Of a stretch of 64,000 nucleotides of DNA, positions 4,851-48,946 are shown piece by piece; the first letter of the stretch is position 1; each line of letters opens with the position of its first letter. The position numbers were made by a program, and so were the translations under genes. The DNA comes from Patescibacteria group bacterium (GTDB taxonomy: Bacteria; Patescibacteriota; Minisyncoccia; Phycocordibacterales; UBA9973), in assembly GCA_028865035.1 (NCBI GenBank), contig JAGWLB010000001.1, forward strand, positions 99,668-163,667, given 5' to 3'. The notes under the pieces were generated by a model, which saw nothing but the letters and a program-made list of their open reading frames with translations, was not told the DNA's origin and did not search any database.

Positions 4851-7388
4851 ATGATCACTGAGGATTTGATTGTCTACATACAGACACAGCTTAGAAAAAA
4901 TACTCCTAAAGATATAATTATATCTCGTCTTCTATCTGCTGGGTGGCATAGAGATGATGTAGATGAAGCGTTCGCAAAAATTAACCCACCCACTCCAAGC
5001 GTTGTTCAACAACCTACACAACCAAAATCTTTTTATGTATCTACGTTATCTTCCATAGATAGCTTTTCTAAAAATCCAGATCCATATCGTGAGAAAATCT
5101 CACCGAATGAACCCGAGCCTAAAATTGAAGAAATAAAAGATACAATCAAGGTTGAACCAAAAATTGAATTAAAACCAGAACCAGTATCAGAACCAAAAAC
5201 AGTAACTACAGCTCAACCGGTTGAAAAACAAGAACCAGTTATTTCTAATACTAAACCTAATCCCGAGACAGATAGAGTAAAACCTATCTTTGCAAAAAGC
5301 TTCAGTGAAGCTAATCCAAAAATCCAAGTTGAGCCTATAAAAAATAATACTGAATCTAAAACACAAACAACATCACAAGTACATCCAGAAGTTGAGCCGC
5401 TTATTCCGCCACTATCTAAAAAAGCAGCAGAACCCATCATTACTACGGCATCTATCTTAAATCAAAAAAGTGATGAGACAAAAATAGAGATACGCAATGA
5501 AGAAATAGCACCAGTGTTGCCTAAAAAGGAAGAGATAGAAAATAAAATATGGACACCCATTAAAGTTCCTCCCAAGGTAGAATCTATTATTCCTCCTGAG
5601 CCAAAGAAAGTTTTTGAACCGGTTACTGTTAATACACCCATATCGCCTAATGTCGAACCAGTTATTTATGTAATTCCAGAAAATATAGAAAGAAAAGTTA
5701 CACAACCTATACAACCAAGTGTAATAAATAAAAAAGCGAATATTGAAGTCCGTAACGAAGAGCTTATCCCACCAATTAAACCCAAGACAAGTATCTCCGA
5801 TATCAAAAAGAATATTAAGCCAGTAACTCCTACTTCAGCGGTATTATCTGGACTTAAGATGACTTCCAGTACGAAGGTGCCAGAAAAGCCCACTGTACCT
5901 ACTATTGATAGCTTGGCAAGTAGTGCGATGATATATTCATATAAAAAAACATTACAACAAGCAATTAAAAATAATGAGAAAAAATTTGTTTATAAAAAAC
6001 ATAAATTATTTAAATGGTTACCAGTAATATTAATAATTATTGTTGCTCTAACTACAGCCGTTTTCTTGGTTAGTGGAAATTACATAAAGTTACCTTCATT
6101 TATAAAGAAAGATCCAAAAACTCTGCTTATTAATGCTCCTGTATCTCTTGGTAAATTAAAATATTATAAAATTGAAACAAACGCCACTATTTCTCTACCA
6201 CCGCTTGCAAATATTACTTCTGGCTTGGTTAGTGGACAAGCTGTGGTATCGAACGATAAAGATTATCTATCTCTTTCAGCTAAAGGTGTTGTTAACCACG
6301 AGAATGAATCTATGCCAGTATATGATTACAACGCCATCTTCAGTAGCTCATTGTTTAAGGATAATATTGTAGCAAACCTTAAATATAATAGTCTTATTTC
6401 TCTTGTTACAACTCCTGATTTAAGCCAGTTGCTAGGATCTAATGCACCAAAAGTGACTAATGTCTTAGTACCCAAAGGTCAGTTAGATGCTTTCATTCCT
6501 TTACTTCCTGGCAAGCTTCAAGATATTGCTTCTAAAGTTAATATTGAACAATTATTCTCTATAGGAGTGCCATCGTATGCAAACGATGAGACAAATTCTA
6601 TCTTCAGAGATTTTGTAAATAATAGTACTGTTATTGAAAAAAGCCCAGAAGTCGTGCGCGGAGTATTGTCGTATCATTATGAATTAAATGCAAACAAAAC
6701 AGATACAAATAAATTCATTACACAGTTCATAGATACTTTTACTTTTGGATTATCAGATGCTGAAAAAAATACTTTGAACGAAAGACTGGGCGCTATTTCT
6801 CTCGATTCATTTGAAGTCTGGGTAGGTGAACAAGATAACAGAATACATCAATATGAATTCAAACTCACAACACCATTATCTAGATTGATAGGATTAGACG
6901 ATAAAGGTATTGCCGGTAATCAAGTAAGCTTGGATTTTAAAACTACTTACTATGATTTTGATGTTAAGAATACTATTTCTATACCTACAGATGCAGTGAG
7001 TGTTTCCGATTTTATGAAAAGTATTAGTGATATGAAAATAAAAGATAAAATTTCTTCATTTAAAGTCCTGGCAACAAATTTCCATAATGCTACAGGTAAC
7101 TACGGTAGTCGTAGTAATCCAAATGGTAGCTGTACTAACCCTAATCCTGGCTCTATGTTCTCTCCAGTTGGTAATCCTAGTGGAGCAAGTAATGCTGTAA
7201 GTTATATTTCAAGTTTGATGAATGATATTTTAAACACGACAAATGGTGCTCTGTATTGTTACTCTACTCCGAGCGCTTGGGCCCTTGCTGCACCACTTGC
7301 TGTTGATCCTGCCACTCTATACTGTTCTGATAACACTGGTAAAGATATTATCCTTAATAAGCCACCAACCGGTGCGTCTTGTAAATAA
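4851..7388 (+). CDS. Large bitopic membrane protein: cytoplasmic N-domain, ~330-aa Pro/Glu/Lys-rich degenerate-repeat linker, one TM helix, and a Cys-containing C-terminal extracytoplasmic domain
   Basis: Repeated IE(V/I)RNEE(L/I)xP and PEPK-like units; TM helix LPVILIIIVALTTAVFLV; no recognised catalytic motif. Confidence 0.4.
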   Translation: MITEDLIVYIQTQLRKNTPKDIIISRLLSAGWHRDDVDEAFAKINPPTPSVVQQPTQPKSFYVSTLSSIDSFSKNPDPYREKISPNEPEPKIEEIKDTIKVEPKIELKPEPVSEPKTVTTAQPVEKQEPVISNTKPNPETDRVKPIFAKSFSEANPKIQVEPIKNNTESKTQTTSQVHPEVEPLIPPLSKKAAEPIITTASILNQKSDETKIEIRNEEIAPVLPKKEEIENKIWTPIKVPPKVESIIPPEPKKVFEPVTVNTPISPNVEPVIYVIPENIERKVTQPIQPSVINKKANIEVRNEELIPPIKPKTSISDIKKNIKPVTPTSAVLSGLKMTSSTKVPEKPTVPTIDSLASSAMIYSYKKTLQQAIKNNEKKFVYKKHKLFKWLPVILIIIVALTTAVFLVSGNYIKLPSFIKKDPKTLLINAPVSLGKLKYYKIETNATISLPPLANITSGLVSGQAVVSNDKDYLSLSAKGVVNHENESMPVYDYNAIFSSSLFKDNIVANLKYNSLISLVTTPDLSQLLGSNAPKVTNVLVPKGQLDAFIPLLPGKLQDIASKVNIEQLFSIGVPSYANDETNSIFRDFVNNSTVIEKSPEVVRGVLSYHYELNANKTDTNKFITQFIDTFTFGLSDAEKNTLNERLGAISLDSFEVWVGEQDNRIHQYEFKLTTPLSRLIGLDDKGIAGNQVSLDFKTTYYDFDVKNTISIPTDAVSVSDFMKSISDMKIKDKISSFKVLATNFHNATGNYGSRSNPNGSCTNPNPGSMFSPVGNPSGASNAVSYISSLMNDILNTTNGALYCYSTPSAWALAAPLAVDPATLYCSDNTGKDIILNKPPTGASCK

Positions 7389-7391
7389 AAT

Positions 7392-7814
7392 ATGAAAAAT
7401 ATAATCATTATAGAATCAATAAGTATTCTTGGCTTAATAGGTTTTTTGATTTCTTCGTATATATATAAAAAAAAGAAATCAAAGAAAAAGTTGATATGTC
7501 CTAGACGCTCAAACTGCGATACCGTTATACACTCCGATCACTCAAAGATTATGGGTATCCCTGTTGAAGTCCTAGGAATGACTTATTATTTTATAATCAG
7601 TTGTTCATATAGTCTTTTGTTGTCTCTTAATATTTGGTCTTTCTCTGTGGCTGTAGTACTTCTCGGAGCTACCTTATCCGCTACCTTGTTCTCGATATAT
7701 CTCGTTTCTATTCAAGCATTTGTTGTTAAACATTGGTGCATCTGGTGTTTATCTTCAGCGATTATTTCTATCTCTATAGCTTCATTAGCTTATATTCTTA
7801 CACTCGCATTTTAA
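7392..7814 (+). CDS. Vitamin K epoxide reductase (VKOR) family disulfide-generating membrane protein
   Basis: Loop cysteine pair CPRRSNC followed by SDHSKIMGIPVEVLGMTYY, and the TM active-site CIWC (CxxC) motif. Confidence 0.65.
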   Translation: MKNIIIIESISILGLIGFLISSYIYKKKKSKKKLICPRRSNCDTVIHSDHSKIMGIPVEVLGMTYYFIISCSYSLLLSLNIWSFSVAVVLLGATLSATLFSIYLVSIQAFVVKHWCIWCLSSAIISISIASLAYILTLAF

Positions 7815-8004: not shown

Positions 8005-8138
8005 GGGTGCTTAAACAAGCAAACTGCTTTGCTTATGTCTGGGATTTGAAAACCTTTTCCGTTTGAGCATCGCGAATGGAAAAGGTATACAGATCCTGTA
8101 AGGATCAAAAAGCGTACTCGCGGTCCCGGTAGGCACCC
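8005..8138 (+). repeat. tRNA-His-like terminal duplication: a GGGTGCTTA 5' segment and a TCCCGGTAGGCACCC 3' segment flank ~115 nt of structured, hairpin-rich non-coding sequence
   Basis: 8124-8138 matches the tRNA-His 3' end 7956-7970 at 14 of 15 positions. 8005-8013 matches the tRNA 5' end GGTGCCTA with one mismatch. The two ends can pair (GGGTGCT/GGCACCC). Confidence 0.5.
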
Positions 8139-8197: not shown

Positions 8198-8206
8198 TGG
8201 TATAAT
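8198..8206 (+). promoter_or_regulatory. Extended -10 promoter (TGGTATAAT) 6 nt upstream of the ATG at 8213, implying a leaderless or near-leaderless transcript
   Basis: TGnTATAAT match at 8198-8206; no room for an SD sequence. Confidence 0.5.
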
Positions 8207-8212
8207 AAAACT

Positions 8213-9973
8213 ATGAACTCTGAAACCAGAAACTGTCAAAACTGCAAGCAAGACTTCACTATTGAGCCAGATGATTTCTCTTTCTATGAGAAAATCAAAG
8301 TTCCTCCACCTACATTTTGCCCAGAGTGTAGATTTGAAAGAAGAGCTGCTTTTCGTAATGAAAATAAACTTTTCCTTGTTAAAGATGCTTTTACCAAAAA
8401 AGATATTTTTTCATTGTATCCACCAGAGGCAAATCGCAAGGTTGTAACCCAAGAAGAATGGCATAGCGACACATGGAGTGCTTTTGATTATGGAAAAGAT
8501 ATTGATTGGTCTCGACCATTTATGACTCAGGTTTTAGAACTTGAAAAAGAAGTCCCAATTTACAATCTTAATGTGCAAAGAATGTTTAATAGTCCATATT
8601 CAGGCAATGCCACAGGCTTAAAAAATTGTTATTTACTCTTCGGATCAAATGACTCAGAGAATTGTTTATATGGTAATGAGGTAGATGCTTCTAGGGATTG
8701 TGTGGATAATTCTCATATTAATAAGTCTGAGCGTTGTTATGATTGTTTTTGGATTCAGAACTGTTATCAATGTTATGGAAGTATAATGTCTGTCGATTGT
8801 AGTAATGTGTGGTTTTCTCGCGATTGCCTTAGCTGTCACGATTGTATTGGCTGTACTAATTTACGTAAATCATCATATTGTATTTTTAATAAACAATATA
8901 CTAAGGAAGAATATACAAAATTAATAAGTGACATGAACCTCAATAGTATTCTTGACTATAAGAATATGTATGAGAAATCTATAAAATTTTGGAAAACTCA
9001 GATAAATAAATACCATCAAGGTTTGAGGAATTTAGATTCAACTGGGTCGTATGTAACGGATTCAAAAAATGTTAAATATGGATATGCAATACGTGGTAGT
9101 GAAAATTTAAAATATTGCCAGCTGATGTTAGTTCCAGACAATAAAGACTGTTATGACTGTTGTATATGGGGTCAACATACTGAATTATCATACGAGACTA
9201 GTATATGCGGTGAAAATTCATATAATCTTAAATTCTGTTTTAATAGTTGGCCTTCATGTCGTGATAGTGAGTACTGTATGAATAATTTTAGCTCTGGAAA
9301 TTGTTTTGGGTGTGTTGGTTTAAAAAGTGCACAATATTGTATTTTGAATAAGCAGTATTCTAAAGAAGAATATACTAGTTTAGTTTCAAAAATAAAAAAA
9401 CATATGGATGAAGTTCCATATATTGATTCACAAGGTTTAATCTATAAATATGGTGAATTTTTCCCAATAGAATTTTCTCCGTTTGGCTATAATAATTCTT
9501 TAGCAATTCAACAATTTTCTATGAATAAAGAAGAAGCTATAAAACATGGATATCCATGGATAGAAAAAGAAAAAAATGAATATGATATATCATTAAAGTA
9601 TTCAGATTTACCACAATCTATTTCTGAAGTAGATAATAGTATTTTGAAAGAAATTATTGAATGTGAAAAATGCCATAAGGCTTATCGTATTATGCCAGAT
9701 GAACTGACTTTTTTAAAAAAAGAAAATATACCTCTTCCGACTAAGTGTGTTGAGTGCCGTTATCAGGAGCGAATATTTCACAGGTTGTCTTTTAGGCTTT
9801 ACAATAGTAGCTGCATGTGTAATGGGGTAAATGATAAAACTAATCAGTACTCCAATACAAGAATGCATACTCATGGAAGTAATGCTTGTCAAGAAATATT
9901 TATGACTGGTTATAACCCTAAGGGTGACGATATAGTTTACTGTGAAAAATGTTATCAACAAGAAGTAGTATAA
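8213..9973 (+). CDS. Cysteine-rich (about 45 Cys) internally duplicated protein with N- and C-terminal CxxC...CxxC zinc-ribbon-like modules; unknown function
   Basis: N-term CQNCKQDF..FCPECRFERR and C-term CEKCHKAY..CVECRYQER are paralogous modules. Two ~170-aa internal repeats each end in CI(F/L)NKQY(T/S)KEEYT. Cys spacing of 9-12 residues is solenoid-like. Confidence 0.5.
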   Translation: MNSETRNCQNCKQDFTIEPDDFSFYEKIKVPPPTFCPECRFERRAAFRNENKLFLVKDAFTKKDIFSLYPPEANRKVVTQEEWHSDTWSAFDYGKDIDWSRPFMTQVLELEKEVPIYNLNVQRMFNSPYSGNATGLKNCYLLFGSNDSENCLYGNEVDASRDCVDNSHINKSERCYDCFWIQNCYQCYGSIMSVDCSNVWFSRDCLSCHDCIGCTNLRKSSYCIFNKQYTKEEYTKLISDMNLNSILDYKNMYEKSIKFWKTQINKYHQGLRNLDSTGSYVTDSKNVKYGYAIRGSENLKYCQLMLVPDNKDCYDCCIWGQHTELSYETSICGENSYNLKFCFNSWPSCRDSEYCMNNFSSGNCFGCVGLKSAQYCILNKQYSKEEYTSLVSKIKKHMDEVPYIDSQGLIYKYGEFFPIEFSPFGYNNSLAIQQFSMNKEEAIKHGYPWIEKEKNEYDISLKYSDLPQSISEVDNSILKEIIECEKCHKAYRIMPDELTFLKKENIPLPTKCVECRYQERIFHRLSFRLYNSSCMCNGVNDKTNQYSNTRMHTHGSNACQEIFMTGYNPKGDDIVYCEKCYQQEVV

Positions 9974-9979
9974 TAAATT

Positions 9980-10468
9980 ATGGAAAAAATCATGACTTCA
10001 GATTTAGTTTTAGAGATTTACAGTTCTTTAGATAATATTGGAATACCTATTTGGATTGATGGTGGTTGGGCAAAGGATGCTCTTATAGGTAGACAAACAA
10101 GAGAACATAGGGATTTAGATATTGCTGTTGAAAGGAAAAACTTAGATAAATTAATTAACTATTTTGAATCTCTAAAATACAAAGAAATTCCTAGATCAGA
10201 AGAAAATAAATGGGATATTGTTTTAGGTGATGACGATAGTGAAATAGATATTCATGCTTTTGAATTTGATGATAATAGCAAGATTATAGACAAACCATAT
10301 TGGGATGCATATTCAGAGGATGCACTCAATGGTATAGGTCATATTAATGGTATTAGAGTACGGTGTGTAAATATTAATCATCTTTTGAAAACTCTCGACG
10401 AGAAGAAACGTGAATTACGTGAAAAAGATAGGCATGATTTGTCTTTACTGCTTAATTTAAAAAAGTGA
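9980..10468 (+). CDS. Small nucleotidyltransferase of the ANT(2'')/AadB-like family
   Basis: IPIWIDGGWAKDALIGRQTREHRDLDI closely parallels the ANT(2'')-Ia motif LPLWIGGGWAIDARLGRVTRKHDDIDL; ~160 aa, like AadB. Confidence 0.6.
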   Translation: MEKIMTSDLVLEIYSSLDNIGIPIWIDGGWAKDALIGRQTREHRDLDIAVERKNLDKLINYFESLKYKEIPRSEENKWDIVLGDDDSEIDIHAFEFDDNSKIIDKPYWDAYSEDALNGIGHINGIRVRCVNINHLLKTLDEKKRELREKDRHDLSLLLNLKK

Positions 10469-10524: not shown

Positions 10525-10920
10525 ATGGGTCCTAAAAATGATTTAAATTGGTATAATACCATTATGAATAAACTAACCGATGAAGAAAAGAAAGTTATAA
10601 TCGATAAAGGAACCGAGGCTCCTTTTGTCGGTGAATATGTAAATAATAAAGAGACAGGGGTTTATGTCTGTAAACAATGTGGATCACCTTTATATAATTC
10701 AAAAGATAAATTTGAATCTACTTGTGGTTGGCCAAGCTTTGATGATGAGATTAGTGGCGCTGTGAATAAAAGTCTAGATGCCGATGGAATAAGGACTGAA
10801 ATAACTTGCGCTAAATGTGGTGGACACCTAGGGCACTTGTTCAAAGGAGAACATTATACAGACAAAGATGTTAGACATTGTGTGAACTCTATATCATTAA
10901 AATTTATCCCGGGAAAATAA
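10525..10920 (+). CDS. msrB: Peptide methionine sulfoxide reductase MsrB
   Basis: [10 protein letters not shown]; CxxC pairs CKQCGSPL and [12 protein letters not shown]; RHCVNS catalytic Cys region. Confidence 0.85.
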
Positions 10921-10923
10921 TAT

Positions 10924-11409
10924 ATGATTAAAAAGGCAATATTTGCAGGTGGCTGTTTCTGGGGATTACAAGATTTAATACGTAAAGAACCAGGTGTAGT
11001 CAAAACACAAGTCGGCTACACTGGTGGTGTCGTAGATAATCCTACTTATGAGAATCATACAGGTCACGCCGAGGCTGTAGAGATAGAGTATGACACAGAG
11101 AAAACATCTTATAAGCAACTTCTAAATTTCTTTTTCCAGATTCATAATCCGACAACTTTAAATCAACAGGGGAATGATCGGGGTACTTCATATAGATCAG
11201 CAATATTTTATAGTAATGAAGAAGAAAAAAAAGAAGCCGAAGATTTTATTGATATTGTAAATAAATCTAAAAGATGGAAGGATCCAGTAGTCACAAGCCT
11301 TGAGCGATTTACAAAATTCTGGCCAGCAGAAGACTACCATCAAGATTATCTTCAGAAAAATCCAGGAGGATATACTTGTCACGCCATATGGTTTGATAGT
11401 TATATATAA
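10924..11409 (+). CDS. msrA: Peptide methionine sulfoxide reductase MsrA
   Basis: GCFWG active-site motif near the N-terminus; downstream YHQDYL. Confidence 0.85.
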
Positions 11410-11897: not shown

Positions 11898-13001
11898 ATG
11901 AAATTCCTTAAACTTACAGCTTTATCACTCTTAGGTTTTTTAGCTGTATTTTTCAGCGCATCTGCACACGAAGCATATGTTCTTCCATATAATGATTTCT
12001 GGAGTGGATTGCATAAACCGTTTAGCGGTCACGCTTTTGATGCTCTAAAGAATCCAAATAATATTCGCATAACTATCATAATTGTTTTATCTGTCTGGAT
12101 ACTCTTAGGTTTGAACTTTCTTTTTCTTCGAAGTTCTGCTGGTAGGAAAGCACAGGCTTTTCTTGAAAGATATTCTCACTTTGGTCCACACTTTGTGCGT
12201 ATCACTATAGCTATCGCTTTTCTTTTTTCTGCATTAAGCAATAGTTTCCTAGGGCCTGAATTACATGGAAATTTATTCCCATATCCACATTTACTACAGA
12301 TAGCTCTAATTGCTATCAGTATTATGATTGCAATCGGTTTTATGACAGAGCTCGCAGCTTTAGCTGGCATTATAATATTCATTATGAGTTTTTTTATATT
12401 TGGTCCATATGTATTTACTTACTTGAATTACTTAGGAGAACTCATCGTCTTATTCCTTTTTGGAATGCGTGTCTTTTCTTTAGATAAATATATTTTTGGA
12501 CCTTTGCACCGTTTTAAAAATTTTGAAAAATATGAGACCGTGATCGTACGAATACTATACGGTATAGCCCTTATCTATGCGGCCATTACAGTAAAGCTTC
12601 TTCATCCCGATCTAACAGTAAGTGTCGTAAATGCTTGGCATCTAACAAAGTTCCACTGGCTTTTCCCCTCAGATCCACTCTTGGTTACTTTTGGCGCGGG
12701 AATAGTAGAATCTATAATAGGACTATTTATAATATTTGGTTTTGAGATGCGTTTGACTATACTCATAAGTCTTTTTTATATTACACTTTCGCTTTTATAT
12801 TTCAGAGAATTAGTCTGGCCTCATTTACTTCTATACGGTATATCTATAAGCTTACTCGTCCAGCCAGAAATCTTTACACTTGATCACTTAATTTCTAAAG
12901 AACATCGTAAAACAAAAGCATGGTGGAAAAGGCCATTTTCTCCATATCATCAAGTTGGTAAAAGTAGTGTGTCAATTAAAGATATCAGCACAAATAAATA
13001 G
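11898..13001 (+). CDS. Polytopic membrane protein, possibly DoxX/HTTM-like; unknown function
   Basis: Signal-like N-terminus plus about 8 TM helices; starts 4 nt after the previous gene's stop. Confidence 0.4.
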   Translation: MKFLKLTALSLLGFLAVFFSASAHEAYVLPYNDFWSGLHKPFSGHAFDALKNPNNIRITIIIVLSVWILLGLNFLFLRSSAGRKAQAFLERYSHFGPHFVRITIAIAFLFSALSNSFLGPELHGNLFPYPHLLQIALIAISIMIAIGFMTELAALAGIIIFIMSFFIFGPYVFTYLNYLGELIVLFLFGMRVFSLDKYIFGPLHRFKNFEKYETVIVRILYGIALIYAAITVKLLHPDLTVSVVNAWHLTKFHWLFPSDPLLVTFGAGIVESIIGLFIIFGFEMRLTILISLFYITLSLLYFRELVWPHLLLYGISISLLVQPEIFTLDHLISKEHRKTKAWWKRPFSPYHQVGKSSVSIKDISTNK

Positions 13002-16314: not shown

Positions 16315-16866
16315 ATGAATCATATTCAATACGAAGAGGCTCCAGTAGCAAAATTTATTTTTGGTAATACAAAAATGTCTTGGCTATGGTTAATCGCTAG
16401 GCTATACGTTGGTTGGGAATGGCTCCAAGCTGGTCTAAGTAAATTCAATGGTCAAGGTTGGATAGGGGACGGTGCTGGTAATGCACTTTCTGGTTTTATT
16501 AAAGGTGCTTTGTCTAAAACTGTCGGCGAACACCCAGATGTTTCTGGTTGGTATGGATCATTTCTTGAAAATGTAGTTCTTCCACACGCTTCTCTATGGT
16601 CTCATTTAGTGACTTACGGCGAAATTCTAGTAGGAGTTGCCCTTATCTTGGGTGTCTTCACGGGTATTGCTGCATTTTTTGGATTATTTATGAATTTAAA
16701 TTTTATGCTAGCTGGGTCACTTAGTGTAAATCCTATTTTATTTACACTTAGCATCGGACTAGTTCTTGCTTGGAAAATCGCCGGTGAAATAGGTATAGAT
16801 AGATACTTACTTCCAGCCCTTGGGACATATTGGCAACCTGGGAAAATATTCCAGCCAAAAGTATAA
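16315..16866 (+). CDS. DoxX-family membrane protein
   Basis: WLIARLYVGWEWLQAGLSKF... with a 4-TM DoxX-like layout. Confidence 0.5.
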   Translation: MNHIQYEEAPVAKFIFGNTKMSWLWLIARLYVGWEWLQAGLSKFNGQGWIGDGAGNALSGFIKGALSKTVGEHPDVSGWYGSFLENVVLPHASLWSHLVTYGEILVGVALILGVFTGIAAFFGLFMNLNFMLAGSLSVNPILFTLSIGLVLAWKIAGEIGIDRYLLPALGTYWQPGKIFQPKV

Positions 16867-17279: not shown

Positions 17280-18473
17280 ATGGTTAAAGCAGTCAGAAAA
17301 CAAAAAATAAAAACCAAAACAAAAATTAAATCTAAACCCAAGATTAAGGCTAAGACTAAAGTTAAGGCTAAAGCCAAAACCAAAAAGAAAATAATTAAAA
17401 AAATTATTGTAAAAAGAAAAATAAAAAAAGTTGTCACAAAAAAAAGAAAAATTCTCAAAAAAGAAGAACAACTTACTAAACTAAAAAAACATTCGAATAA
17501 TCCCATTATTAAACCAAGTTATTATCAATGGGAATCTAAAGCTACTTTTAATCCTAGTGCTTTTGAAGCAAACGGTAAAGTTTACATTCTTTATCGTGCT
17601 GTTGGAGATAATGATTTATCTGTCCTAGGTTACGCGTCAAGCTATGATGGCCTCAACATAGAAGATAGGCCAACGTACGCTGTCTATCAAAGAAAAAATG
17701 AAATTGAAAATTTTGGATTATCAATAGATTATATCTCAGGAGGAGGAGGAAATGGTGGCTGTGAAGATCCAAGGTTAACGAGGATAGGTGATACTATATA
17801 TATGCTCTACACAGCTTTCGATGGCTGGAGTTCTGTACGTATAGCACTTACTTCAATAAAGTTAGACGATTTCAAAAAGAAAAAATGGAATTGGGAAAAA
17901 CCAATATTGCTTTCTCCACCAGGAGAAATACAAAAAAGCTGGGTACTCTTTCCAGAAAAGATTAATGGAAAATTTGCAATACTACATAGTATTTCACCTC
18001 AAATATTGATTGATTATATAGATGATTGGAATGATTTCAGAAATAATAAATTTATAGAAAGCATTTCTCATGAAGATAGAGAAAGGAATGTTTTAGAGAC
18101 TGGAATTAGAGGAGTAGGTCCAAGCCCTATAAAAACCAAACTAGGTTGGTTAGTACTGTATCACGCAATAGAGAAAAATGATCCAGGAAGATATAAATTA
18201 TTTGCTTTAGTTTTAGATTATAAAAATCCTAAAAATGTTATCTATCGTTCTGCTTATCCGATACTTGAACCAGAAAAAGCATACGAGAATGAAGGTCTTA
18301 AGTGGGGAGTGATTTATTCTTGTGGCGCGGTTGTTAAAGATGGAACTCTTTTTGTTTATTATGGTGGATCTGATCAATTTGTCTGTGTTGCTTCAATCGA
18401 GCTCGATAAATTATTAGATTCCCTTAAGAGAGAAAAAAAGGTTACACTTAAGAATAATAAAATATTAAAATAA
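17280..18473 (+). CDS. GH130 family glycoside phosphorylase (beta-mannoside phosphorylase-like) with a ~70-aa Lys-rich N-terminal extension
   Basis: NPIIKPSYYQWESKATFNPSAFEANGKVYILYRAVGDNDLSVLGYASSYDGLNIEDR and CEDPRLTRIGDTIYMLYTA are GH130 signatures. The first ~70 residues are KxK repeats. Confidence 0.75.
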   Translation: MVKAVRKQKIKTKTKIKSKPKIKAKTKVKAKAKTKKKIIKKIIVKRKIKKVVTKKRKILKKEEQLTKLKKHSNNPIIKPSYYQWESKATFNPSAFEANGKVYILYRAVGDNDLSVLGYASSYDGLNIEDRPTYAVYQRKNEIENFGLSIDYISGGGGNGGCEDPRLTRIGDTIYMLYTAFDGWSSVRIALTSIKLDDFKKKKWNWEKPILLSPPGEIQKSWVLFPEKINGKFAILHSISPQILIDYIDDWNDFRNNKFIESISHEDRERNVLETGIRGVGPSPIKTKLGWLVLYHAIEKNDPGRYKLFALVLDYKNPKNVIYRSAYPILEPEKAYENEGLKWGVIYSCGAVVKDGTLFVYYGGSDQFVCVASIELDKLLDSLKREKKVTLKNNKILK

Positions 18474-18483
18474 ATATAAACAT

Positions 18484-20424
18484 ATGTACGTAGTTAAAAG
18501 ATCTGTCCATAATCCAATACTTATACCTAATCGTGATCATTACTGGGAAGCGTTTGCGACTTTTAATATGTGTCCAATAAAAATTGGTAAAGTTACTTAC
18601 GGATTATATAGAGCAATTTCAGCTGTAGATCAAATGGCAATTCAGAAACAAATATCTACCATAGGTATAGGTAAGAGTCGTGATGGTATTCATTTTGAAG
18701 ATAGAGAGCCATTTATTGTTCCGGTTGAAGAATGGGAAGCTCATGGATGTGAAGACCCTCGTATTACATACTTCGAAGGAAAATATTACATATTTTATAC
18801 AGCCCTTTCGAGATATCCATTTGGACCAGAAGGAATAAAAGTTGCTGTTGCAGTCTCTAATGATTTAAAGAAAGTAAATGAACGTCATTTTGTGACACCT
18901 TTTAACGCAAAGGCTATGACATTGTTTCCAAAACGCATAAATGGCAAAATAACTGTCATTTTTTCAGCACATACAGATAGTCCTCCAGCTAAAATGTCTA
19001 TTGCTCAAGTAGACCATATGGAACAACTTTGGGATATAGATTTCTGGGAAGAATGGATAAAAAATATAGATGAACACACTATCAGTTTTCGTCGTACACA
19101 ATACGACCATCTAGAAGTTGGAGCACCACCAATACTTACTAAATATGGATGGTTACTTGTATATTCACATATACAAAATTATTTTCCATCACCAGAGAAA
19201 CTTGATCGTATTTTTGGTATTGAAGCGCTTCTGTTAGATAAAAATGATTTAACAAAAGTAATAGGTAGAACGAAAGGACCAATACTAGCACCGAACGAGC
19301 CATACGAGTTGTCTGGGTATGTGAATGATGTAGTATTCCCAACTGGAGCATTAGTGAATAAAGATATACTTACTATTTACTATGGAGCAGCTGATACTAC
19401 AACTTGTACTGCACACGTAAACTTAAATGATTTGATATTCAGTATGTGTCCAGATAAATTTCCAGATTTTCAATTTAAACGCTCAGCAAAAAATCCTATA
19501 ATCTCTCCCAAAAGTGAAAATGATTGGGAATCAAAAGCGACTTTCAATCCAGCCGCAATATATCTCGGAGGCAAAACACACATCTTATACAGAACTCTTT
19601 CTGGTGATAACACTTCATATATAGGTTATGCTTCAAGTAAAGATGGAATTAATTTAATTGAAAGATTAAATTCTCCTATATATGTACCACGCGAGGATTT
19701 TGAAAAGAAAAAAATTTCTGGAGGTAACTCAGGTTGTGAAGATCCAAGAATAACTCAAATAGGGAAAAATCTTTATATCTGTTACACCGCTTACGACAGT
19801 ATCGGCCCACCACACGTTGCTATCTCTTCTATAACAGTTAAAGATTTTTTAGCTCACAAATGGAACTGGACTAAACCAGCACTTGTGACGCCTCCTGCTT
19901 TTGATGATAAAGATACTTGTTTGTTTCCAGAGAAATTAAAAAATGGATACTTTATTCTACATCGTGTGGGGAATGATATTTGTGGTGATTATCTTAAATC
20001 ACTTGATTTTGAGAAGAATATGGTTCACAAATGCATTCGAGTTCTTGCTCCACGCTTAAATTCTTGGGACAGTGCTAAAGTTGGTATCACAGCTCCACCG
20101 ATAAAAACAAAATATGGTTGGTTGTTGCTTTATCATGGAGTATCAAAGAGTCACGGTACCTATCGTGTCGGAGCGGTACTTCTTGATCTGAAAGATCCAG
20201 GTATTATCCTTTCGCAAAGCACGGATCCTATTTTTGAACCGATTGAATCTTACGAGAAGGTTGGTATTGTTAATAATGTTGTATTTCCTTGCGGAATGGT
20301 CCGCAAAGGGGACTTGCTATATATATATTACGGCGGAGGAGATAAGGTTGTAGGTGTTGCTACGATGAAATTTTCAACAATTCTCTCTGCCCTTGTTCAC
20401 GGGAAACGTTTTAATGATAAATAA
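18484..20424 (+). CDS. Tandem-duplicated GH130 glycoside phosphorylase (two complete GH130 domains in one 646-aa protein)
   Basis: Domain 1: HNPILIPNRDHYWEAFATFN...GCEDPRITYFEGKYYIFYTA. Domain 2: KNPIISPKSENDWESKATFNPAAIYLGGKTHILYR...GCEDPRITQIGKNLYICYTA. Confidence 0.75.
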   Translation: MYVVKRSVHNPILIPNRDHYWEAFATFNMCPIKIGKVTYGLYRAISAVDQMAIQKQISTIGIGKSRDGIHFEDREPFIVPVEEWEAHGCEDPRITYFEGKYYIFYTALSRYPFGPEGIKVAVAVSNDLKKVNERHFVTPFNAKAMTLFPKRINGKITVIFSAHTDSPPAKMSIAQVDHMEQLWDIDFWEEWIKNIDEHTISFRRTQYDHLEVGAPPILTKYGWLLVYSHIQNYFPSPEKLDRIFGIEALLLDKNDLTKVIGRTKGPILAPNEPYELSGYVNDVVFPTGALVNKDILTIYYGAADTTTCTAHVNLNDLIFSMCPDKFPDFQFKRSAKNPIISPKSENDWESKATFNPAAIYLGGKTHILYRTLSGDNTSYIGYASSKDGINLIERLNSPIYVPREDFEKKKISGGNSGCEDPRITQIGKNLYICYTAYDSIGPPHVAISSITVKDFLAHKWNWTKPALVTPPAFDDKDTCLFPEKLKNGYFILHRVGNDICGDYLKSLDFEKNMVHKCIRVLAPRLNSWDSAKVGITAPPIKTKYGWLLLYHGVSKSHGTYRVGAVLLDLKDPGIILSQSTDPIFEPIESYEKVGIVNNVVFPCGMVRKGDLLYIYYGGGDKVVGVATMKFSTILSALVHGKRFNDK

Positions 20425-29395: not shown

Positions 29396-31153
29396 ATGCA
29401 TCTCGATGAGAAAAGTATCATAGATCTATTAAATAGTTCAGGGCTAGTCAGTAAAACTGATGTAGCTATGGCTCAAAAGAAAGCTAAAGAAAAAGGTCAA
29501 TCTATTGGCCTAGTTTTAGTTAGTGAAGGTAAGCTTACAGAAAAAGATTGGAACAGTATGCAAGCCGTTTCACTAGGTATTCCATTTGTTAGCTTGAAGG
29601 GTGAGAAGATTGATCCTAGTGTCCTATCTCTGATACCAGAACCGATTGCTCGTAACAGTAATATAATTGCTTATAAAAAAAGCAAAGCAGGCCTAGAAGT
29701 TGCGATGCTCGACGTAGATAATTTATCGGTTATAGATTTTATAAAGAAAAAAGTTGGGCTTAAGATTTTACCGCGCCTAACAAGCTCAGATTCAATAAAG
29801 GAAGCCTTAACACAATACAAGAAAAGTTTGCAAGCTGACTTTGAAGATATCATCAAAAAAGAAAGCGCTTCGATAAAAACTATTTTAAAAAATGATAACT
29901 CTAGTGAAGAAAAGTCAGAAAAAGAACTTAAAGAATTAGCAGAAGATTTACCAATAGTAAAGATAGTAGATACTCTTATCTCTCATGCCATTTCTCAAGG
30001 AGCATCTGATGTACATATAGAGCCTGAAGAGGATTCACTAATTGTTCGTTATCGCATTGATGGTATTTTGCACGATGCGATGGTTTTACCCAAAGACACT
30101 GCACCAGGAATAGTGGCTCGTATAAAAGTTTTGTCAAATCTAAAATTAGACGAAAAACGTCTCCCTCAAGACGGACGTTTCAAAATTGAAGGAGAAGACG
30201 GTAATGTATCATTTCGTGTTTCGACTCTGCCTACGTATTATGGAGAAAAAACAGTGATACGTATTTTAAGAGAAAACTCTAAAGGTTTTTCCCTAGAGAC
30301 TCTAGGCTTTCACGGTAATGCACTAGAACTTATACATGAAGGTATGAAGCAAAGAAGTGGTATGTTGCTTTGTGCGGGTCCTACGGGTTCGGGTAAAACT
30401 ACAACTTTGTATACAATGCTCGATATTTTAAATACTCCAGAAGTAAATATTTCCACTGTTGAAGACCCTATAGAATATCAAATGGCACGTATAAACCAAA
30501 CACAAACAAAAGCAGAAATAGGTTTAACTTTTGCAAATGGTTTGCGTACACTGCTTCGTCAAGATCCGGATATTATAATGGTAGGGGAGATTCGTGACGG
30601 GGAGACAGCTTCACTTGCAGTCAACGCTAGTCTTACTGGCCACTTAGTACTATCAACCATCCACACGAATTCCGCTGCTGGAGCTATTCCCCGTATGATA
30701 GATATGGGAGTCGAACCATTTTTAATTGTTTCTACAGTTAAAACCATTATTGCTCAGCGCTTAGTTAGAATTCTTGATGATAATAAGGAAAAATATTTCT
30801 TAGACGATGCTGAAAAAAAAGCTCTAGAAAAAGTTGCAAATCTCGATCTTGTTCTTGAAAGATTGAAAAGTGAAAAGATTGTTGATCCAAATGCTACTTG
30901 GAAAACTATACCATTATACAAACCTGTAACAAGTAAAGAATCAGAGAGTGGTTATAAAGGACGGTTAGGTATTCACGAAGTTTTAAAAGTTACACCGACT
31001 CTTAAAGATATGATTCTAAAAGGATCATCAACGGATGAGATTGAAGCCAGAGCAAAAGAAGAGGGTATGATGACAATGCTCGAAGATGGTATTTTCTTTG
31101 CCTGCAAGGGTTTGACTTCGACAGAAGAGGTTCTTCGTGTTGTTTCTGAATAA
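29396..31153 (+). CDS. pilB: Type IV pilus assembly ATPase PilB (GspE family)
   Basis: N-terminal GSPII_E_N-like domain; Walker A LLCAGPTGSGKTTTLY; GspE His box. Confidence 0.85.
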   Translation: MHLDEKSIIDLLNSSGLVSKTDVAMAQKKAKEKGQSIGLVLVSEGKLTEKDWNSMQAVSLGIPFVSLKGEKIDPSVLSLIPEPIARNSNIIAYKKSKAGLEVAMLDVDNLSVIDFIKKKVGLKILPRLTSSDSIKEALTQYKKSLQADFEDIIKKESASIKTILKNDNSSEEKSEKELKELAEDLPIVKIVDTLISHAISQGASDVHIEPEEDSLIVRYRIDGILHDAMVLPKDTAPGIVARIKVLSNLKLDEKRLPQDGRFKIEGEDGNVSFRVSTLPTYYGEKTVIRILRENSKGFSLETLGFHGNALELIHEGMKQRSGMLLCAGPTGSGKTTTLYTMLDILNTPEVNISTVEDPIEYQMARINQTQTKAEIGLTFANGLRTLLRQDPDIIMVGEIRDGETASLAVNASLTGHLVLSTIHTNSAAGAIPRMIDMGVEPFLIVSTVKTIIAQRLVRILDDNKEKYFLDDAEKKALEKVANLDLVLERLKSEKIVDPNATWKTIPLYKPVTSKESESGYKGRLGIHEVLKVTPTLKDMILKGSSTDEIEARAKEEGMMTMLEDGIFFACKGLTSTEEVLRVVSE

Positions 31154-45616: not shown

Positions 45617-48600
45617 ATGAGTGAAAAAAAATATTTCTTCAGATTTTTCAAATTATCTCACCTGGTAATAGTATCAGTGTTGTTGCTCGTATTATCTGTC
45701 GGTATTTACACTAAAGCTTATGCCATTGCCTCACCATATAATCCAGGAGATACCTTAGATCCTGCTTGTGCACCAGGGGATGTAAACTGTATTGTGCAGA
45801 TAGTTCCTTCACCGTGGACTACTGTTGCTGGTGGTATTAGTTACACTGGAGGAAACGTAAATATTAATTCTGGTTCTGCCTATCAATATGGTGGAGTAAA
45901 TGTTATCACTGCACAGACAAGTAAAAATAATTATTTCTTTGGTAATGCTGGAAATTTGACTGGAACTGGCATTAAAAATACGGCTGTGGGGGCTGGGGCA
46001 CTTTCGTCAACTACGACAAGTGCATGGAATACTGCAGTGGGGTATGACGCTCTACAGCTCAATACAACAGGGAACAGTGATGTCGCTTTCGGATACTGCG
46101 CTCTTTTAAATAATACGACTGGTTATTTCAACGCCGCGCTGGGAACATGTGCACTTCTTCACAATACAACTGGGTACGATAATACTGCTACTGGTTTTGA
46201 TTCGCTTTATTACAATACCACTGGTTATGCTAATACTTCTACTGGCTCAGTAGCTCTTTATGGTAATACTACTGGTAATAATAATGTGGCTATGGGATAT
46301 TACTCTCTTTTTAAAAATACTACCGGGTCAAATAACACAGCCATAGGAATGCAATCTCTTTATGACCTAAATATTATTGCTAATGATGGTTCTGGTAACA
46401 ACACTGCTATCGGTTACAATACCGGTCGTGGTATCACAACCGGTATCAACAACACCATCATCGGTGCCAATGTCACTGGTCTTGCGACAGGACTTTCAAA
46501 CAATATCATCATCGCCGATGGAGCAGGGAATCAGAGAATTAATATTGATAACACAGGATTATTAAAACTCGGTACTTATGGTGTAGGTACTCACACTGGT
46601 ACCGCAGCTTATACATTACAGGTTGATGCAAGCGGTAATGTGATTGAAGGACCTGCAGTTTTTTCTCCGTGGACTACTGTTGCTGGTGGTATTAGTTACA
46701 CCGGAGGAAACGTAAATATTAATTCTGGTTCTGCGTATCAATATGGCGGGGTAAATGTTATTACTGCTCAGACAGCTAGTAATAATTATTTCTTTGGTAA
46801 TGCCGGGAATTTGACGGGGACGGGTGTTAAGAATACAGCAGTAGGAGGTAGTGCTTTGATTGCTACCACTACTGGAGGTTATAATACTGCTCTAGGAGAG
46901 GAAGCTTTAAAAGTTAATGATGCTGGTGCACAAAACACTGCAGTAGGTACTTATTCTTTAACCGCTAATACTTCTGGTTCATATAATACTGGACTTGGAG
47001 TAACTACTTTATCTAGAAATACGACAGGAAAGGATAATTTAGCTGTTGGGCACAGCGCCCAGTATTACAATACTACTGGTAATTATAATACTGCTATTGG
47101 TATGTATGCTTTGCATAACAATACTACAGGTTCATATAATACTGCTATTGGTATGCAAGCCCTATATGATATTAATAGCATTACGGCCAATGATTCCGGC
47201 AACAACACCGCTCTCGGTTACAACACCGGTCGTGGTATCACTACTGGTATCAACAACACTATCATCGGTGCCAATGTCACTGGTCTTGCGCCAGGACTTT
47301 CAAACAACATCATTATTGCCGATGGAGCAGGGAATCAGAGAATTAATATTGATAACACAGGATTATTAAAACTTGGTACTTATGGTGTTGGTACTCATAC
47401 TGGTACTGCAGCTAAAACCCTCCAAGTAGATGCAAGTGGAAATGTGATAGAGGGAGCTTCACTTATTGGTTCTACTTCAACAGGCACAGGCACTGAAACA
47501 TGGCTCGGTACAAGTGCTGCGGGGTTGGGAACGGCGTCGACAGATCATACAGTTTTTATTGGTGTTGATACAGGAACAAATTCAACTTTTGGAAATCATT
47601 CAAATTTTATAGGATCAAGTGCTGGTTATAATGCAACAAATGCCACTAATTCTAATTTCGTAGGATTCAATGCTGGTGGTTATGCTACTAATGCTAACCA
47701 ATCAACTTTTTTTGGCGAAAATGCCGGAAGTTCTGCTTCTAATGCCGCATATTCTATTTTTATTGGAATGAATTCTGGTAAAAATGACACTGTTAATAAC
47801 ACTGCTACATTTGACAATACAACCACTTTTGCTAACACATCTATACTACTAGGTTACAACACTTCCACCGGTGGTTTCTCCAACTCTATAGCTATTGGTG
47901 CTTATGCCACTAACACTGCCACTAATCAATTTATGATTGGTTCAGCAAATCGTCCAATAGATAGTACCCGTATCAACGGTACCGGAGGTACACAATGTAC
48001 TATCACTACAGGTACAGGTATAGCTTGTACATCCGATGAAAGATTAAAAACAAACATTGTCGATCTATCAGATGATACACTCGCTAAACTTGCTGGAGTT
48101 CGTACTGTAACTTTCAACTGGTTAGCTACTCCTAATGTTAACCCCCAAATAGGTTTCATCGCTCAAAACCTAGAACCAATCTTCCCAGAACTAGTAGCTA
48201 CAGATTCAAATGGATACAAGTCAGTCTACTACTCTCACATAACCCCAATTCTTGTTAAAGCCATCCAAGAGATGAATCTAAAAGTTGATAAGTTATCATC
48301 ATTAGATATTTCGCAATCCAATTCACTCGGTTCACTTATTACAAGCTTCTTAGGTTCTGTTGGTAATGGTATAAAAGATTTGTATGCGAGTGTAGTGCAT
48401 ACCAACAAACTTTGTATTAATAAATCTGATGGTAATGAAGTTTGTCTTACTGGAGATCAATTACAACAATTAATGGTCAACCAAAGTTCTCCTCAGAATT
48501 TCTCTACAGTAATATACGTACCTACTACACCTACTACCACCACTACTGCACCTACAACACCTACAGATACTAAGAATACCGATACAACTTCTACTCCTAC

Positions 48601-48946
48601 TCCTACAAATACAAGTAGTACCACTTCAACCACTCCAACCACCACCACAACAACTTCTACTTCTTCAACCACATCAACCTCAGACACAACTACACCATCT
48701 ACCAATACCACCACCACAACACCTACAGATATTAAGAATACCGATACAACTCCTACTCCTACAAATACAAGTAGTACCACTTCAACTACACCTACCACCA
48801 CAACAACTTCTACTTCTTCAACCACACCAACTCCTACCACTACTACACCCGCACCTACAACACCTACAACAACAGCAACATCAACCCCAACTCCTAGCAC
48901 TACACCCACACCTACAACAACAGATACCCCAACACCGGTAAATTAA
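45617..48946 (+). CDS. 1109-aa trimeric-fibre-like surface protein: signal/anchor, YadA-head-like 16-residue NTA(V/I)G...NTTG repeats (two ~280-aa copies), peptidase-S74 intramolecular chaperone domain, Thr/Pro-rich repeat tail
   Basis: S74-like SDERLKTNIVDLSDDTLAKLAGVRTVTFNW...PQIGFIAQNLEPIFPELV...YKSVYYSHITPILVKAIQE; duplicated PWTTVAGGISYTGGNVNINSGSAYQYGGVNVITAQT. Confidence 0.65.
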   Translation: MSEKKYFFRFFKLSHLVIVSVLLLVLSVGIYTKAYAIASPYNPGDTLDPACAPGDVNCIVQIVPSPWTTVAGGISYTGGNVNINSGSAYQYGGVNVITAQTSKNNYFFGNAGNLTGTGIKNTAVGAGALSSTTTSAWNTAVGYDALQLNTTGNSDVAFGYCALLNNTTGYFNAALGTCALLHNTTGYDNTATGFDSLYYNTTGYANTSTGSVALYGNTTGNNNVAMGYYSLFKNTTGSNNTAIGMQSLYDLNIIANDGSGNNTAIGYNTGRGITTGINNTIIGANVTGLATGLSNNIIIADGAGNQRINIDNTGLLKLGTYGVGTHTGTAAYTLQVDASGNVIEGPAVFSPWTTVAGGISYTGGNVNINSGSAYQYGGVNVITAQTASNNYFFGNAGNLTGTGVKNTAVGGSALIATTTGGYNTALGEEALKVNDAGAQNTAVGTYSLTANTSGSYNTGLGVTTLSRNTTGKDNLAVGHSAQYYNTTGNYNTAIGMYALHNNTTGSYNTAIGMQALYDINSITANDSGNNTALGYNTGRGITTGINNTIIGANVTGLAPGLSNNIIIADGAGNQRINIDNTGLLKLGTYGVGTHTGTAAKTLQVDASGNVIEGASLIGSTSTGTGTETWLGTSAAGLGTASTDHTVFIGVDTGTNSTFGNHSNFIGSSAGYNATNATNSNFVGFNAGGYATNANQSTFFGENAGSSASNAAYSIFIGMNSGKNDTVNNTATFDNTTTFANTSILLGYNTSTGGFSNSIAIGAYATNTATNQFMIGSANRPIDSTRINGTGGTQCTITTGTGIACTSDERLKTNIVDLSDDTLAKLAGVRTVTFNWLATPNVNPQIGFIAQNLEPIFPELVATDSNGYKSVYYSHITPILVKAIQEMNLKVDKLSSLDISQSNSLGSLITSFLGSVGNGIKDLYASVVHTNKLCINKSDGNEVCLTGDQLQQLMVNQSSPQNFSTVIYVPTTPTTTTTAPTTPTDTKNTDTTSTPTPTNTSSTTSTTPTTTTTTSTSSTTSTSDTTTPSTNTTTTTPTDIKNTDTTPTPTNTSSTTSTTPTTTTTSTSSTTPTPTTTTPAPTTPTTTATSTPTPSTTPTPTTTDTPTPVN
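45806..46650 (+). repeat. Intragenic ~0.8-kb duplication, copy 1 (about 90% identity to copy 2)
   Basis: Shared blocks such as CCGTGGACTACTGTTGCTGGTGGTATTAGTTACAC...; offset about 855 bp. Confidence 0.75.
46661..47455 (+). repeat. Intragenic ~0.8-kb duplication, copy 2
   Basis: See copy 1. Confidence 0.75.
48500..48940 (+). repeat. Tandem Thr/Pro-rich coding repeats (PTTPTDTKNTDTT(S)TPTPTNTSSTTSTTPTTTTT units) forming the C-terminal tail of the fibre protein
   Basis: A ~150-bp unit repeated with variation; it also creates a spurious poly-Val ORF on the minus strand. Confidence 0.7.

Follow-up and report, generated by a model that had tools for sequence, protein, structure and literature searches.

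What kind of protein is built from two runs of regularly spaced cysteines enclosed by finger-like Cys modules, and what could a bacterium use it for? This question is raised by the gene at positions 8213-9973 on the forward strand of a 64,000-nt stretch of DNA (hereafter the window) from a Patescibacteria group bacterium (contig JAGWLB010000001.1 of assembly GCA_028865035.1). The gene is the sole long open reading frame (ORF) at the site, starts at ATG, and encodes 586 amino acids (aa) plus a stop codon. Its product is identical (100%) to the NCBI hypothetical protein KGI58_00600 (Patescibacteria group bacterium), encoded on a contig of 203 kb. A first-pass annotation, made from the sequence, described the product as a leaderless, duplicated, extremely Cys-rich protein of no nameable family. 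The analysis reported here places it in a very large family, ancient and multigene, which is confined to Patescibacteria. In relatives, this family is robustly linked in both directions to soluble VirD4/HerA-like ATPases and is often nested in the dnaK-dnaJ operon. We tentatively propose that the window protein may be a soluble cytoplasmic, non-catalytic adaptor or scaffold of such an ATPase module.

The absence of a nameable family was borne out. Scans of the window protein against Pfam, NCBIfam, and PADLOC, as well as searches of PDB sequences that used either the single protein or one of two profiles, gave nothing that reaches threshold, and literature searches found no paper describing the family. 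Relatives are abundant: a word-seeded protein search, clustered at 90% identity, returned at least 7991 significant matches among the matches listed, every one of them "hypothetical" or unnamed. The top 120 are 59-69% identical to the window protein and nearly all 580-600 aa long, so that the similarity is full-length and the length conserved. An exhaustive HMMER scan of representatives at 50% identity gave 3612 matches (1322 below 1e-30), and a scan in which each GTDB species was represented by one genome gave at least 596 loci with family genes. The phylogenetic distribution, which the first-pass annotation had suggested looking at, is restricted to Patescibacteria. Nearly all of the 79 loci kept bear titles of that type (Nomurabacteria, Staskawiczbacteria, Liptonbacteria, Jorgensenbacteria, Giovannonibacteria, Sungiibacteriota, Paceibacterota, Minisyncoccia, Saccharibacteria, or plain "bacterium"), and one short contig labelled Gammaproteobacteria is probably mis-binned. 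A phage or mobile-element origin is rejected: tblastn gave no match among phages (50,697 records) or plasmids (72,556 records), and one family fragment was found among 2.9 million IMG/VR viral contigs. A considerable part of bacterial diversity belongs to Patescibacteria, in which about half of all proteins lack annotation; the present family is one of their large lineage-specific families. Its pieces (treble-clef fingers and beta-solenoid) are known; for the family as a whole, neither a characterised relative nor a Pfam or NCBIfam model nor a publication was found, and the gene cassette presented below is likewise undescribed.

Several features recur in the genomic context of the relatives, whose loci are given L-numbers. 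Two to eight co-directional, closely spaced family genes lie within ±6 kb at 50 of 83 loci, and one 18-kb locus holds eight full-length copies and a ninth running off the locus end. The paralogs are conserved ancient subfamilies, not recent arms-race expansions, because for 133 of 141 array members a gene of a different genome is closer (median identity 57%) than any gene of the member's own array (median 44%). Two features of the arrays are worth recording. Near-perfect palindromes like GGTTGTCATATGACAACC occur in short spacers between family genes in L001 (e.g., upstream of 2731, 6248, and 8001), L057, and L076, and could be inter-cistronic hairpins or operator sites. In addition, ORFs of ~160 aa that match the family's C-terminal finger region only are found near arrays (L028 2728-3698, L074 13696-14025, and 12 other loci); these could be stand-alone finger proteins or decayed paralogs.

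One or two same-strand P-loop ATPases directly flank the family arrays at 31-32 of 82 loci. These ATPases exceed the Pfam cut-offs for TrwB_AAD_bind, T4SS-DNA_transf, TraG-D_C, and HerA/DUF87, fall far below the NCBIfam equivalog cut-offs, and have no N-terminal membrane anchor. The ~700-aa form bears a clear finger of the zf_Tbcl_2 / CxxC-x17-CxxC type (E 1e-11 to 1e-13, with PF23477 above threshold), and a BLAST comparison of the window protein with the ATPase C-terminal extensions detected a short finger resemblance only. In PADLOC, the window protein matches 0 families, and the neighbouring ATPases of relatives weakly match the mad8 and HerA models. At 12 loci, a bona fide Hsp70 DnaK (811 bits) lies on one side of the block and a type I DnaJ on the other. 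In a reciprocal test, the ATPase alignment was scanned against an independent metagenome collection and the best 80 loci were taken; family genes are present at 37 of these 80, and at 23 of the 44 that are at least 10 kb long. About 20 contigs in this test have the co-directional order FAM(n)-dnaK-ATPase-FAM(n)-ATPase-dnaJ, where FAM is a family gene. The block can be followed in L007, L009, L016, L074, L030, and L084-L105, which carry family gene(s), dnaK, the VirD4-like ATPase with zf_Tbcl_2, family gene(s), a VirD4-like ATPase, and dnaJ, so that the cassette splits the Hsp70 operon. The branch to which the window gene belongs is normally located between both ATPases, e.g., in L007, L009, L016, and L074 (57-63% identity). 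Dispersed solo copies are the window gene itself, L002 (inserted between purL and purQ), and L003.

A 2025 survey counted 5,713 homologues of VirD4-type type IV coupling proteins (T4CPs) in 2,918 Patescibacteria genomes, with 148 of them near virB4, and raised the possibility of exaptation (PMC12102498). The ATPases linked to the present family fit this orphan T4CP class, and the reciprocal linkage of the family to ATPases and dnaK/dnaJ gives such genes a concrete partner and a hypothesis that can be tested.

How might the family protein act in such a module? The proposed adaptor or scaffold would consist of two thin beta-solenoids with narrow Cys/Ser/Val-lined cores, held between treble-clef fingers. 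In relatives, its gene would share a transcript with those of two soluble VirD4/TraD/HerA-type ATPases, and frequently with dnaK and dnaJ as well. The fingers would serve as docking elements, either to nucleic acid via their Arg-rich helices or to the ATPase whose finger is of the same type; specificity would differ from one paralog to the next, and the protein would physically contact the ATPases or Hsp70. A bolder version, which we regard as rather doubtful, is that the family acts together with the two soluble VirD4/HerA-like ATPases and DnaK/DnaJ as an undescribed, Patescibacteria-specific, chaperone-coupled remodelling or translocation machine, with the twin-solenoid paralogs as interchangeable, substrate-specific adaptors. 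If true, such a machine would explain thousands of orphan T4CP genes located far from any secretion system in the tiny genomes of Patescibacteria.

The gene itself is real and strongly constrained, and its product is cytoplasmic. Strong constraint on the best-conserved branch follows from the 60-69% identity kept across named candidate lineages (Nomurabacteria, Staskawiczbacteria, and others). The window protein has no transmembrane segment, hydrophobic segment, or signal peptide (maximum Kyte-Doolittle value over 19 residues, 0.66) and is mildly acidic overall, with a net charge of -10. It contains 37 cysteines, fewer than the approximately 45 first claimed, which amount to 6.3% of residues vs a median of 0.5% (0.83% when pooled) in the other ORFs of the window. 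Self-alignment relates aa 4-54 to aa 479-530 as paralogous CxxC-x24-CxxC modules (35% identity, E=1e-12); the paralogy of the terminal modules thus stands, while the C-terminal copy is not in the last 60 residues, where it had been placed. The interior is likewise duplicated, aa 147-240 aligning with aa 283-393 (35% identity, E=1e-16), with repeats of ~110-140 aa instead of the ~170 first given. As originally read in the sequence, both interior copies terminate in the same way, in CIFNKQYTKEEYT and CILNKQYSKEEYT (consensus CI[FL]NKQY[TS]KEEYT). A second ORF of 585 aa in the window (29396-31153) was considered as a relative and is unrelated. The parts of the protein are as follows, with confidence given where available as the predicted local distance difference test score (pLDDT) of the model discussed below.

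8222-8353, forward strand: zinc finger 1 (aa 4-47), with C8, C11, C36, and C39 (CxxC-x24-CxxC) followed by an Arg-rich helix, CRxxRRxxxRN; treble-clef-like, zf_Tbcl type

8363-8467, forward strand: degenerate second N-terminal finger (aa 51-85), with D/T/T/E at positions 58/61/79/82 in the window protein

8468-8569, forward strand: small conserved helical segment (aa 86-119), motif W.SD.WD...YG.DYDFSRPFF.Q..EL...VP; pLDDT 94-98

8570-8899, forward strand: predicted beta-solenoid 1 (aa 120-229), a Cys/Ser/Val ladder at each 3/9/12 residues, ending in CIFNKQYTKEEY; pLDDT 65-81

8900-8998, forward strand: two-helix connector (aa 230-262), from the secondary structure of the model

8999-9355, forward strand: predicted beta-solenoid 2 (aa 263-381), a paralogous copy of solenoid 1, ending in CILNKQYSKEEY; pLDDT 81-98

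9356-9646, forward strand: helix plus acidic, aromatic-rich conserved domain (aa 382-478), motif YGEFFP.E.SPF.YN....; net charge -6

9647-9796, forward strand: zinc finger 2 (aa 479-528), with C484, C487, C512, and C515; a basic paralog of finger 1

9797-9970, forward strand: zinc module 3 (aa 529-586, core 534-580), with C534, C536, H552, H554, C559, C577, and C580; resembles zf_Tbcl_2 / CxxC-x17-CxxC

The window protein thus has four Cys/His finger modules, three of them intact and the other degenerate, and the intact modules would bind zinc. Conservation was followed in two sets, 48 close homologues (A1) and 67 representatives that are 33-50% identical to the query (A2). Most cysteines appear conserved in the close homologues. 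In the 67 diverged members, C8/C11/C36/C39, C484/C487/C512/C515, and C534/C536/H552/H554/C559/C577/C580 remain invariant or nearly so. In the helical segment of aa 86-119, residues D86, W88, D98, F103, Q106, L110, and P115 are nearly invariant, and aa 382-478 form the most conserved block of the family outside the fingers. The first-pass annotation had called the terminal modules paired zinc ribbons. Their Cys/His sets are indeed invariant family-wide, but they are better described as putative treble clefs than as classical zinc ribbons, because homologues weakly match PF13451 and PF23477. Among the 48 homologues, PF13451 is matched in 10 (best E 3.3e-6, at the expected finger positions) and PF23477 in 14 (best E 1.3e-3), mostly below threshold in both cases.

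The degenerate finger points to an older arrangement. Positions 58/61/79/82 form CxxC-x17-CxxC in 29 of the 67 diverged paralogs, and one paralog (P0128) matches zf_Tbcl at 4-43 and zf_Tbcl_2 at 51-84 (E 3.5e-4). Since the second N-terminal finger is intact in these members, we take the ancestral layout to be symmetric, in the order [finger+finger]-solenoid-solenoid-[finger+finger], with the second N-terminal finger lost in the branch of the window protein.

The interior ladder behaves differently from the finger ligands. In the 67 diverged members, conservation of its cysteines ranges from 4 to 96% and is mostly <50%; only the C205-C214 set, C367, and C376 are Cys in at least 79% of members. 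The Cys-frequent columns are multiples of 3 apart (130, 139, 151, 163, 172, 175, 178, 181, 184, 193, 196, 205, 208, 211, 214, and 223), and the Cys spacing gives a coil period of 12 residues. The ladder therefore reads as core packing and not as obligate metal ligation, because its cysteines vary, give way to Ser, Val, Ile, Leu, Thr, or Ala, and follow an every-third-residue spacing while the finger ligands stay fixed. The same rhythm is found in the 12-residue repeat TCTxSxxCxxAx of the Tenebrio antifreeze protein, at Cys2, Ser5, Cys8, and Ala11.

A Cys-ladder beta-solenoid had been suggested for the interior, and the structure model lends this idea support. With a shallow alignment of 60-69% identical homologues, AlphaFold2 gave both solenoids a pLDDT <50, and Foldseek on that model returned noise. 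With the diverse alignment A2 (34-50% identical representatives), it predicted two solenoids at an overall pLDDT of 89.3 and a predicted template modelling score of 0.89, with zinc finger 1 at pLDDT 94-96. The Foldseek comparison of an AlphaFold model, as proposed by the first-pass annotation, gave nothing at E ≤0.001; the sole structural neighbours of the solenoids are curli CsgA, ice-binding/antifreeze solenoids, and left-handed beta-helices, and the non-solenoid parts of the model have no structural neighbour in Foldseek.

Several observations weigh against the proposed adaptor or scaffold. The 64-kb window contains no VirD4-like ATPase, DnaK, or DnaJ, so the window copy is connected to the ATPases by orthology only, and gene order may persist by descent without functional coupling. 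The finger assignment of the window protein itself is sub-threshold, at 15 bits for PF23477 (cut-off 27; E 0.021). Every family member contains 27-49 cysteines, which leaves room for a metal or redox role of the ladder. In addition, solenoid 1 has a pLDDT of only 65-81, and AlphaFold2 can over-predict beta-solenoids for repeat sequences (PMC11795689). Set against this last concern, the repeats are imperfect and the confidence rose with alignment diversity.

The alternative that survives best is that the protein is a stress-linked redox or zinc-switch holdase (Hsp33-like) or a metal buffer, which would use its thiol-rich solenoids and zinc centres to detect oxidation or to bind metal and would work with the Hsp70 system. 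We consider this unlikely. In its favour, genes of relatives are found both between dnaK and dnaJ and upstream of them, and the high Cys content is found in every family member. Moreover, C205/208/211/214 would occupy all four consecutive inward positions of one coil. All four are Cys in 38 of 67 members, and they are otherwise L/V/S/A. More generally, no ladder Cys is invariant, and many are replaced by Leu, Val, or Ile, which are unable to bind metal. Neither the window protein nor the 48 homologues match HSP33 or another chaperone profile, and there is no CIRCE (HrcA; controlling inverted repeat of chaperone expression) heat-shock operator upstream of the gene, elsewhere in the window, or in 163 loci. 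The local setting seems at first to favour a redox role, as the window gene stands amid thiol/redox genes (7392-7814, 10525-11409, 11898-13001, and 16315-16866, encoding VKOR, MsrB, MsrA, and two DoxX-like membrane proteins), together with tRNA-His and an Lnu/ANT(2'')-like nucleotidyltransferase (9980-10468). But VKOR and MsrA adjoin the family gene at 2 and 1 of 82 homologous loci, respectively, and the nucleotidyltransferase, whose co-occurrence had been singled out for checking, at 0. The downstream nucleotidyltransferase, VKOR, and MsrA/B are therefore rejected as conserved partners, and because the neighbourhood is not conserved in relatives, the local redox cluster is probably coincidental, though it fits a redox reading.

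Two further explanations are, in our judgement, distinctly improbable, and about equally so. According to one, the protein is cargo of a type IV secretion system (T4SS), an effector recognised by the neighbouring VirD4-like coupling proteins, and the paralog arrays form an effector repertoire directed at host bacteria. Diverged paralog arrays do adjoin T4CP homologues, and T4SS genes occur widely in Patescibacteria, where they are important to the epibiotic lifestyle (PMC12102498). Yet the ATPases of the relatives, as read from their sequences, have no N-terminal membrane anchor, and only 148 of the 5,713 T4CPs in the survey lie near virB4 (PMC12102498). The paralogs are ancient, at a median of 57% identity to the nearest orthologue and 60-69% within the window branch, unlike fast-evolving effectors. 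A zinc-stapled solenoid would also be hard to unfold for export, and no secretion signal is recognisable.

The other explanation of this rank is a stand-alone nucleic-acid-binding factor, for example a DNA/RNA organiser or a DNA mimic, in which a rigid solenoid rod would carry an Arg-rich treble-clef finger at either end. The CRxxRRxxxRN helices stand behind both CxxC-x24-CxxC fingers, and finger 2 is basic (pI ~9; family median 9.2). The neighbours of the relatives are of the FtsK/HerA/VirD4 type, ATPases that are typically DNA translocases. On the other hand, treble-clef fingers also mediate protein-protein contacts, the whole protein carries the net negative charge given above, no known DNA- or RNA-binding profile is matched, and neither are the pentapeptide-repeat DNA mimics.

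A left-handed beta-helix-type acyltransferase or gamma-carbonic-anhydrase-like enzyme is scarcely credible, and was already disfavoured, given that neither the window protein nor its homologues match the Hexapep Pfam model, the solenoids have no invariant His, Asp, or Glu, and the coil period by Cys spacing is 12 residues, not 18. More broadly, the sequence bears no apparent enzyme or defence signature. A radical SAM enzyme is rejected: a regular-expression search of the window protein found no CxxxCxxC motif, in agreement with the first-pass annotation, and there is no Radical_SAM Pfam match. A 4Fe-4S ferredoxin is rejected as well, as the conserved CxxCxxCxxxCP motif of such proteins is absent and the CxxCxxCxxC at 205-214 is without Pro, is incomplete in members other than the 38 already mentioned, and gives no Fer4 match. 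The adaptor or scaffold of a VirD4/HerA-like ATPase module thus remains the reading that we tentatively prefer.

Transcription of the gene raises a separate point, for which one further feature is needed.

8198-8206, forward strand: extended -10 element TGGTATAAT, ending 6 nt before the ATG, read in the sequence

The first-pass annotation took this element as the promoter of a leaderless gene. The element and its distance were read correctly, but they are not peculiar to the gene, being a genome-wide habit. A (TGn)TATAAT-like box stands 6-7 nt before the ATG of eight first-in-operon genes in the window, including the Cys-rich gene; other starts with such a box are, for example, 4252, 16921, 28210, 29396, 36659, 38560, and 44907. 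The Cys-rich gene has no Shine-Dalgarno motif upstream, and such motifs are almost absent upstream of the 59 window ORFs checked. Among 160 family gene starts in other genomes, the distance of a -10-like box has a sharp peak at 6 nt, with 19 cases (8 with TGn) vs ~2-3 at most other distances. As the same spacing recurs in other window genes and at family gene starts, a leaderless mRNA is a reasonable inference for the Cys-rich gene and reads as a lineage habit; the pattern suggests that leaderless mRNAs are the norm in the source organism.

Other observations concern the surroundings of the gene. The nucleotidyltransferase (9980-10468, forward strand) has 162 aa, matches PF10706 (E 3e-22), and scores under the NCBIfam cut-offs for resistance genes. 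Its transcription may be independent, since it has its own TATAAT 5 nt before the ATG, overlapping the stop-codon region of the Cys-rich gene. Directly upstream of VKOR (7392-7814), there is an 845-aa ORF (4851-7388, forward strand) without a Pfam match. Its long N-terminal half is of low complexity and rich in Pro, Lys, and Glu, its C-terminus contains Cys, and it has a single hydrophobic segment; the product may be a surface protein that is exported and disulfide-bonded. A second large Cys-rich ORF (48956-52186, forward strand; 37 Cys in 1076 aa, 3.4%) adjoins an ORF of 1109 aa (45617-48946). In the window (17280-20424) as in L003 (10405-13458), the family gene is followed, a few kb downstream, by a pair of adjacent GH130 genes (mannoside phosphorylase-like), which indicates partial synteny between the two genomes.

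Between tRNA-His and the promoter of the Cys-rich gene, there is a GC-richer stretch of 134 nt (8005-8138, forward strand) for which a multibranch fold with a 9-bp closing stem is predicted (minimum free energy -56.7 kcal/mol; z = -6.9; 0/200 shuffles). An Rfam scan found no known RNA family between the tRNA-His gene and the Cys-rich gene. Relatives of the stretch occur on the reverse strand in L051 (8220-8344) and L068 (10210-10322), where the helices are kept and 13 of 40 predicted pairs have compensatory changes; the copies each lie just 3' of a tRNA gene (His, Glu, and Ser). The stretch is a candidate for an undescribed small RNA, possibly co-transcribed with tRNAs.

How does the protein compare with known systems? 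Its fingers are nearest to zf_Tbcl (PF13451) and zf_Tbcl_2 (PF23477), two Pfam families without known function, and to CxxC-x17-CxxC (TIGR04272). The shared traits are a pair of CxxC knuckles separated by 17-25 residues, with F.I/F...D/E..FY as the spacer, and an Arg-rich helix behind the second knuckle. The window protein differs from these families in scoring below the gathering cut-offs (for TIGR04272, 12.4, with a cut-off of 36) and in that the fingers only cap a 586-aa protein with an unrelated core. The chaperones with zinc centres, Hsp33 and DnaJ, are alike in being cytoplasmic Cys/Zn proteins encoded with heat-shock machinery. This likeness is one of context and composition alone, with no match in sequence or fold.

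For the solenoids, the closest solved examples found of this coil type are secreted antifreeze proteins, and the window protein would be a cytoplasmic, Cys-laddered counterpart. The Tenebrio molitor antifreeze protein (1ezg), the spruce budworm antifreeze protein (1m8n), and the Lolium ice-binding protein (3ult) are thin solenoids without sequence homology to it; like them, the modelled solenoids have coils of ~12 residues in which small residues or Cys face inward at each third position. Unlike them, the window protein is cytoplasmic, lacks a signal peptide, and has no Thr-x-Thr ice-binding face (its sequence contains no TxT arrays); its ladder cysteines are interchangeable with Val/Ile/Leu, and there is no sign of disulfides. 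Curli CsgA (8c50), with 7% sequence identity to the window protein, is a secreted amyloid subunit with Q/N ladders, whereas nothing in the window protein suggests fibre formation.

Finally, the VirD4/TraD/TrwB T4CPs and HerA/FtsK are kin of the partner ATPases and not of the window protein, and what they share with the partners is Pfam domains above cut-off. The ATPases of the relatives differ from T4CPs in that they are soluble, usually not near virB4 (PMC12102498), paired, and bracket the family genes between dnaK and dnaJ.

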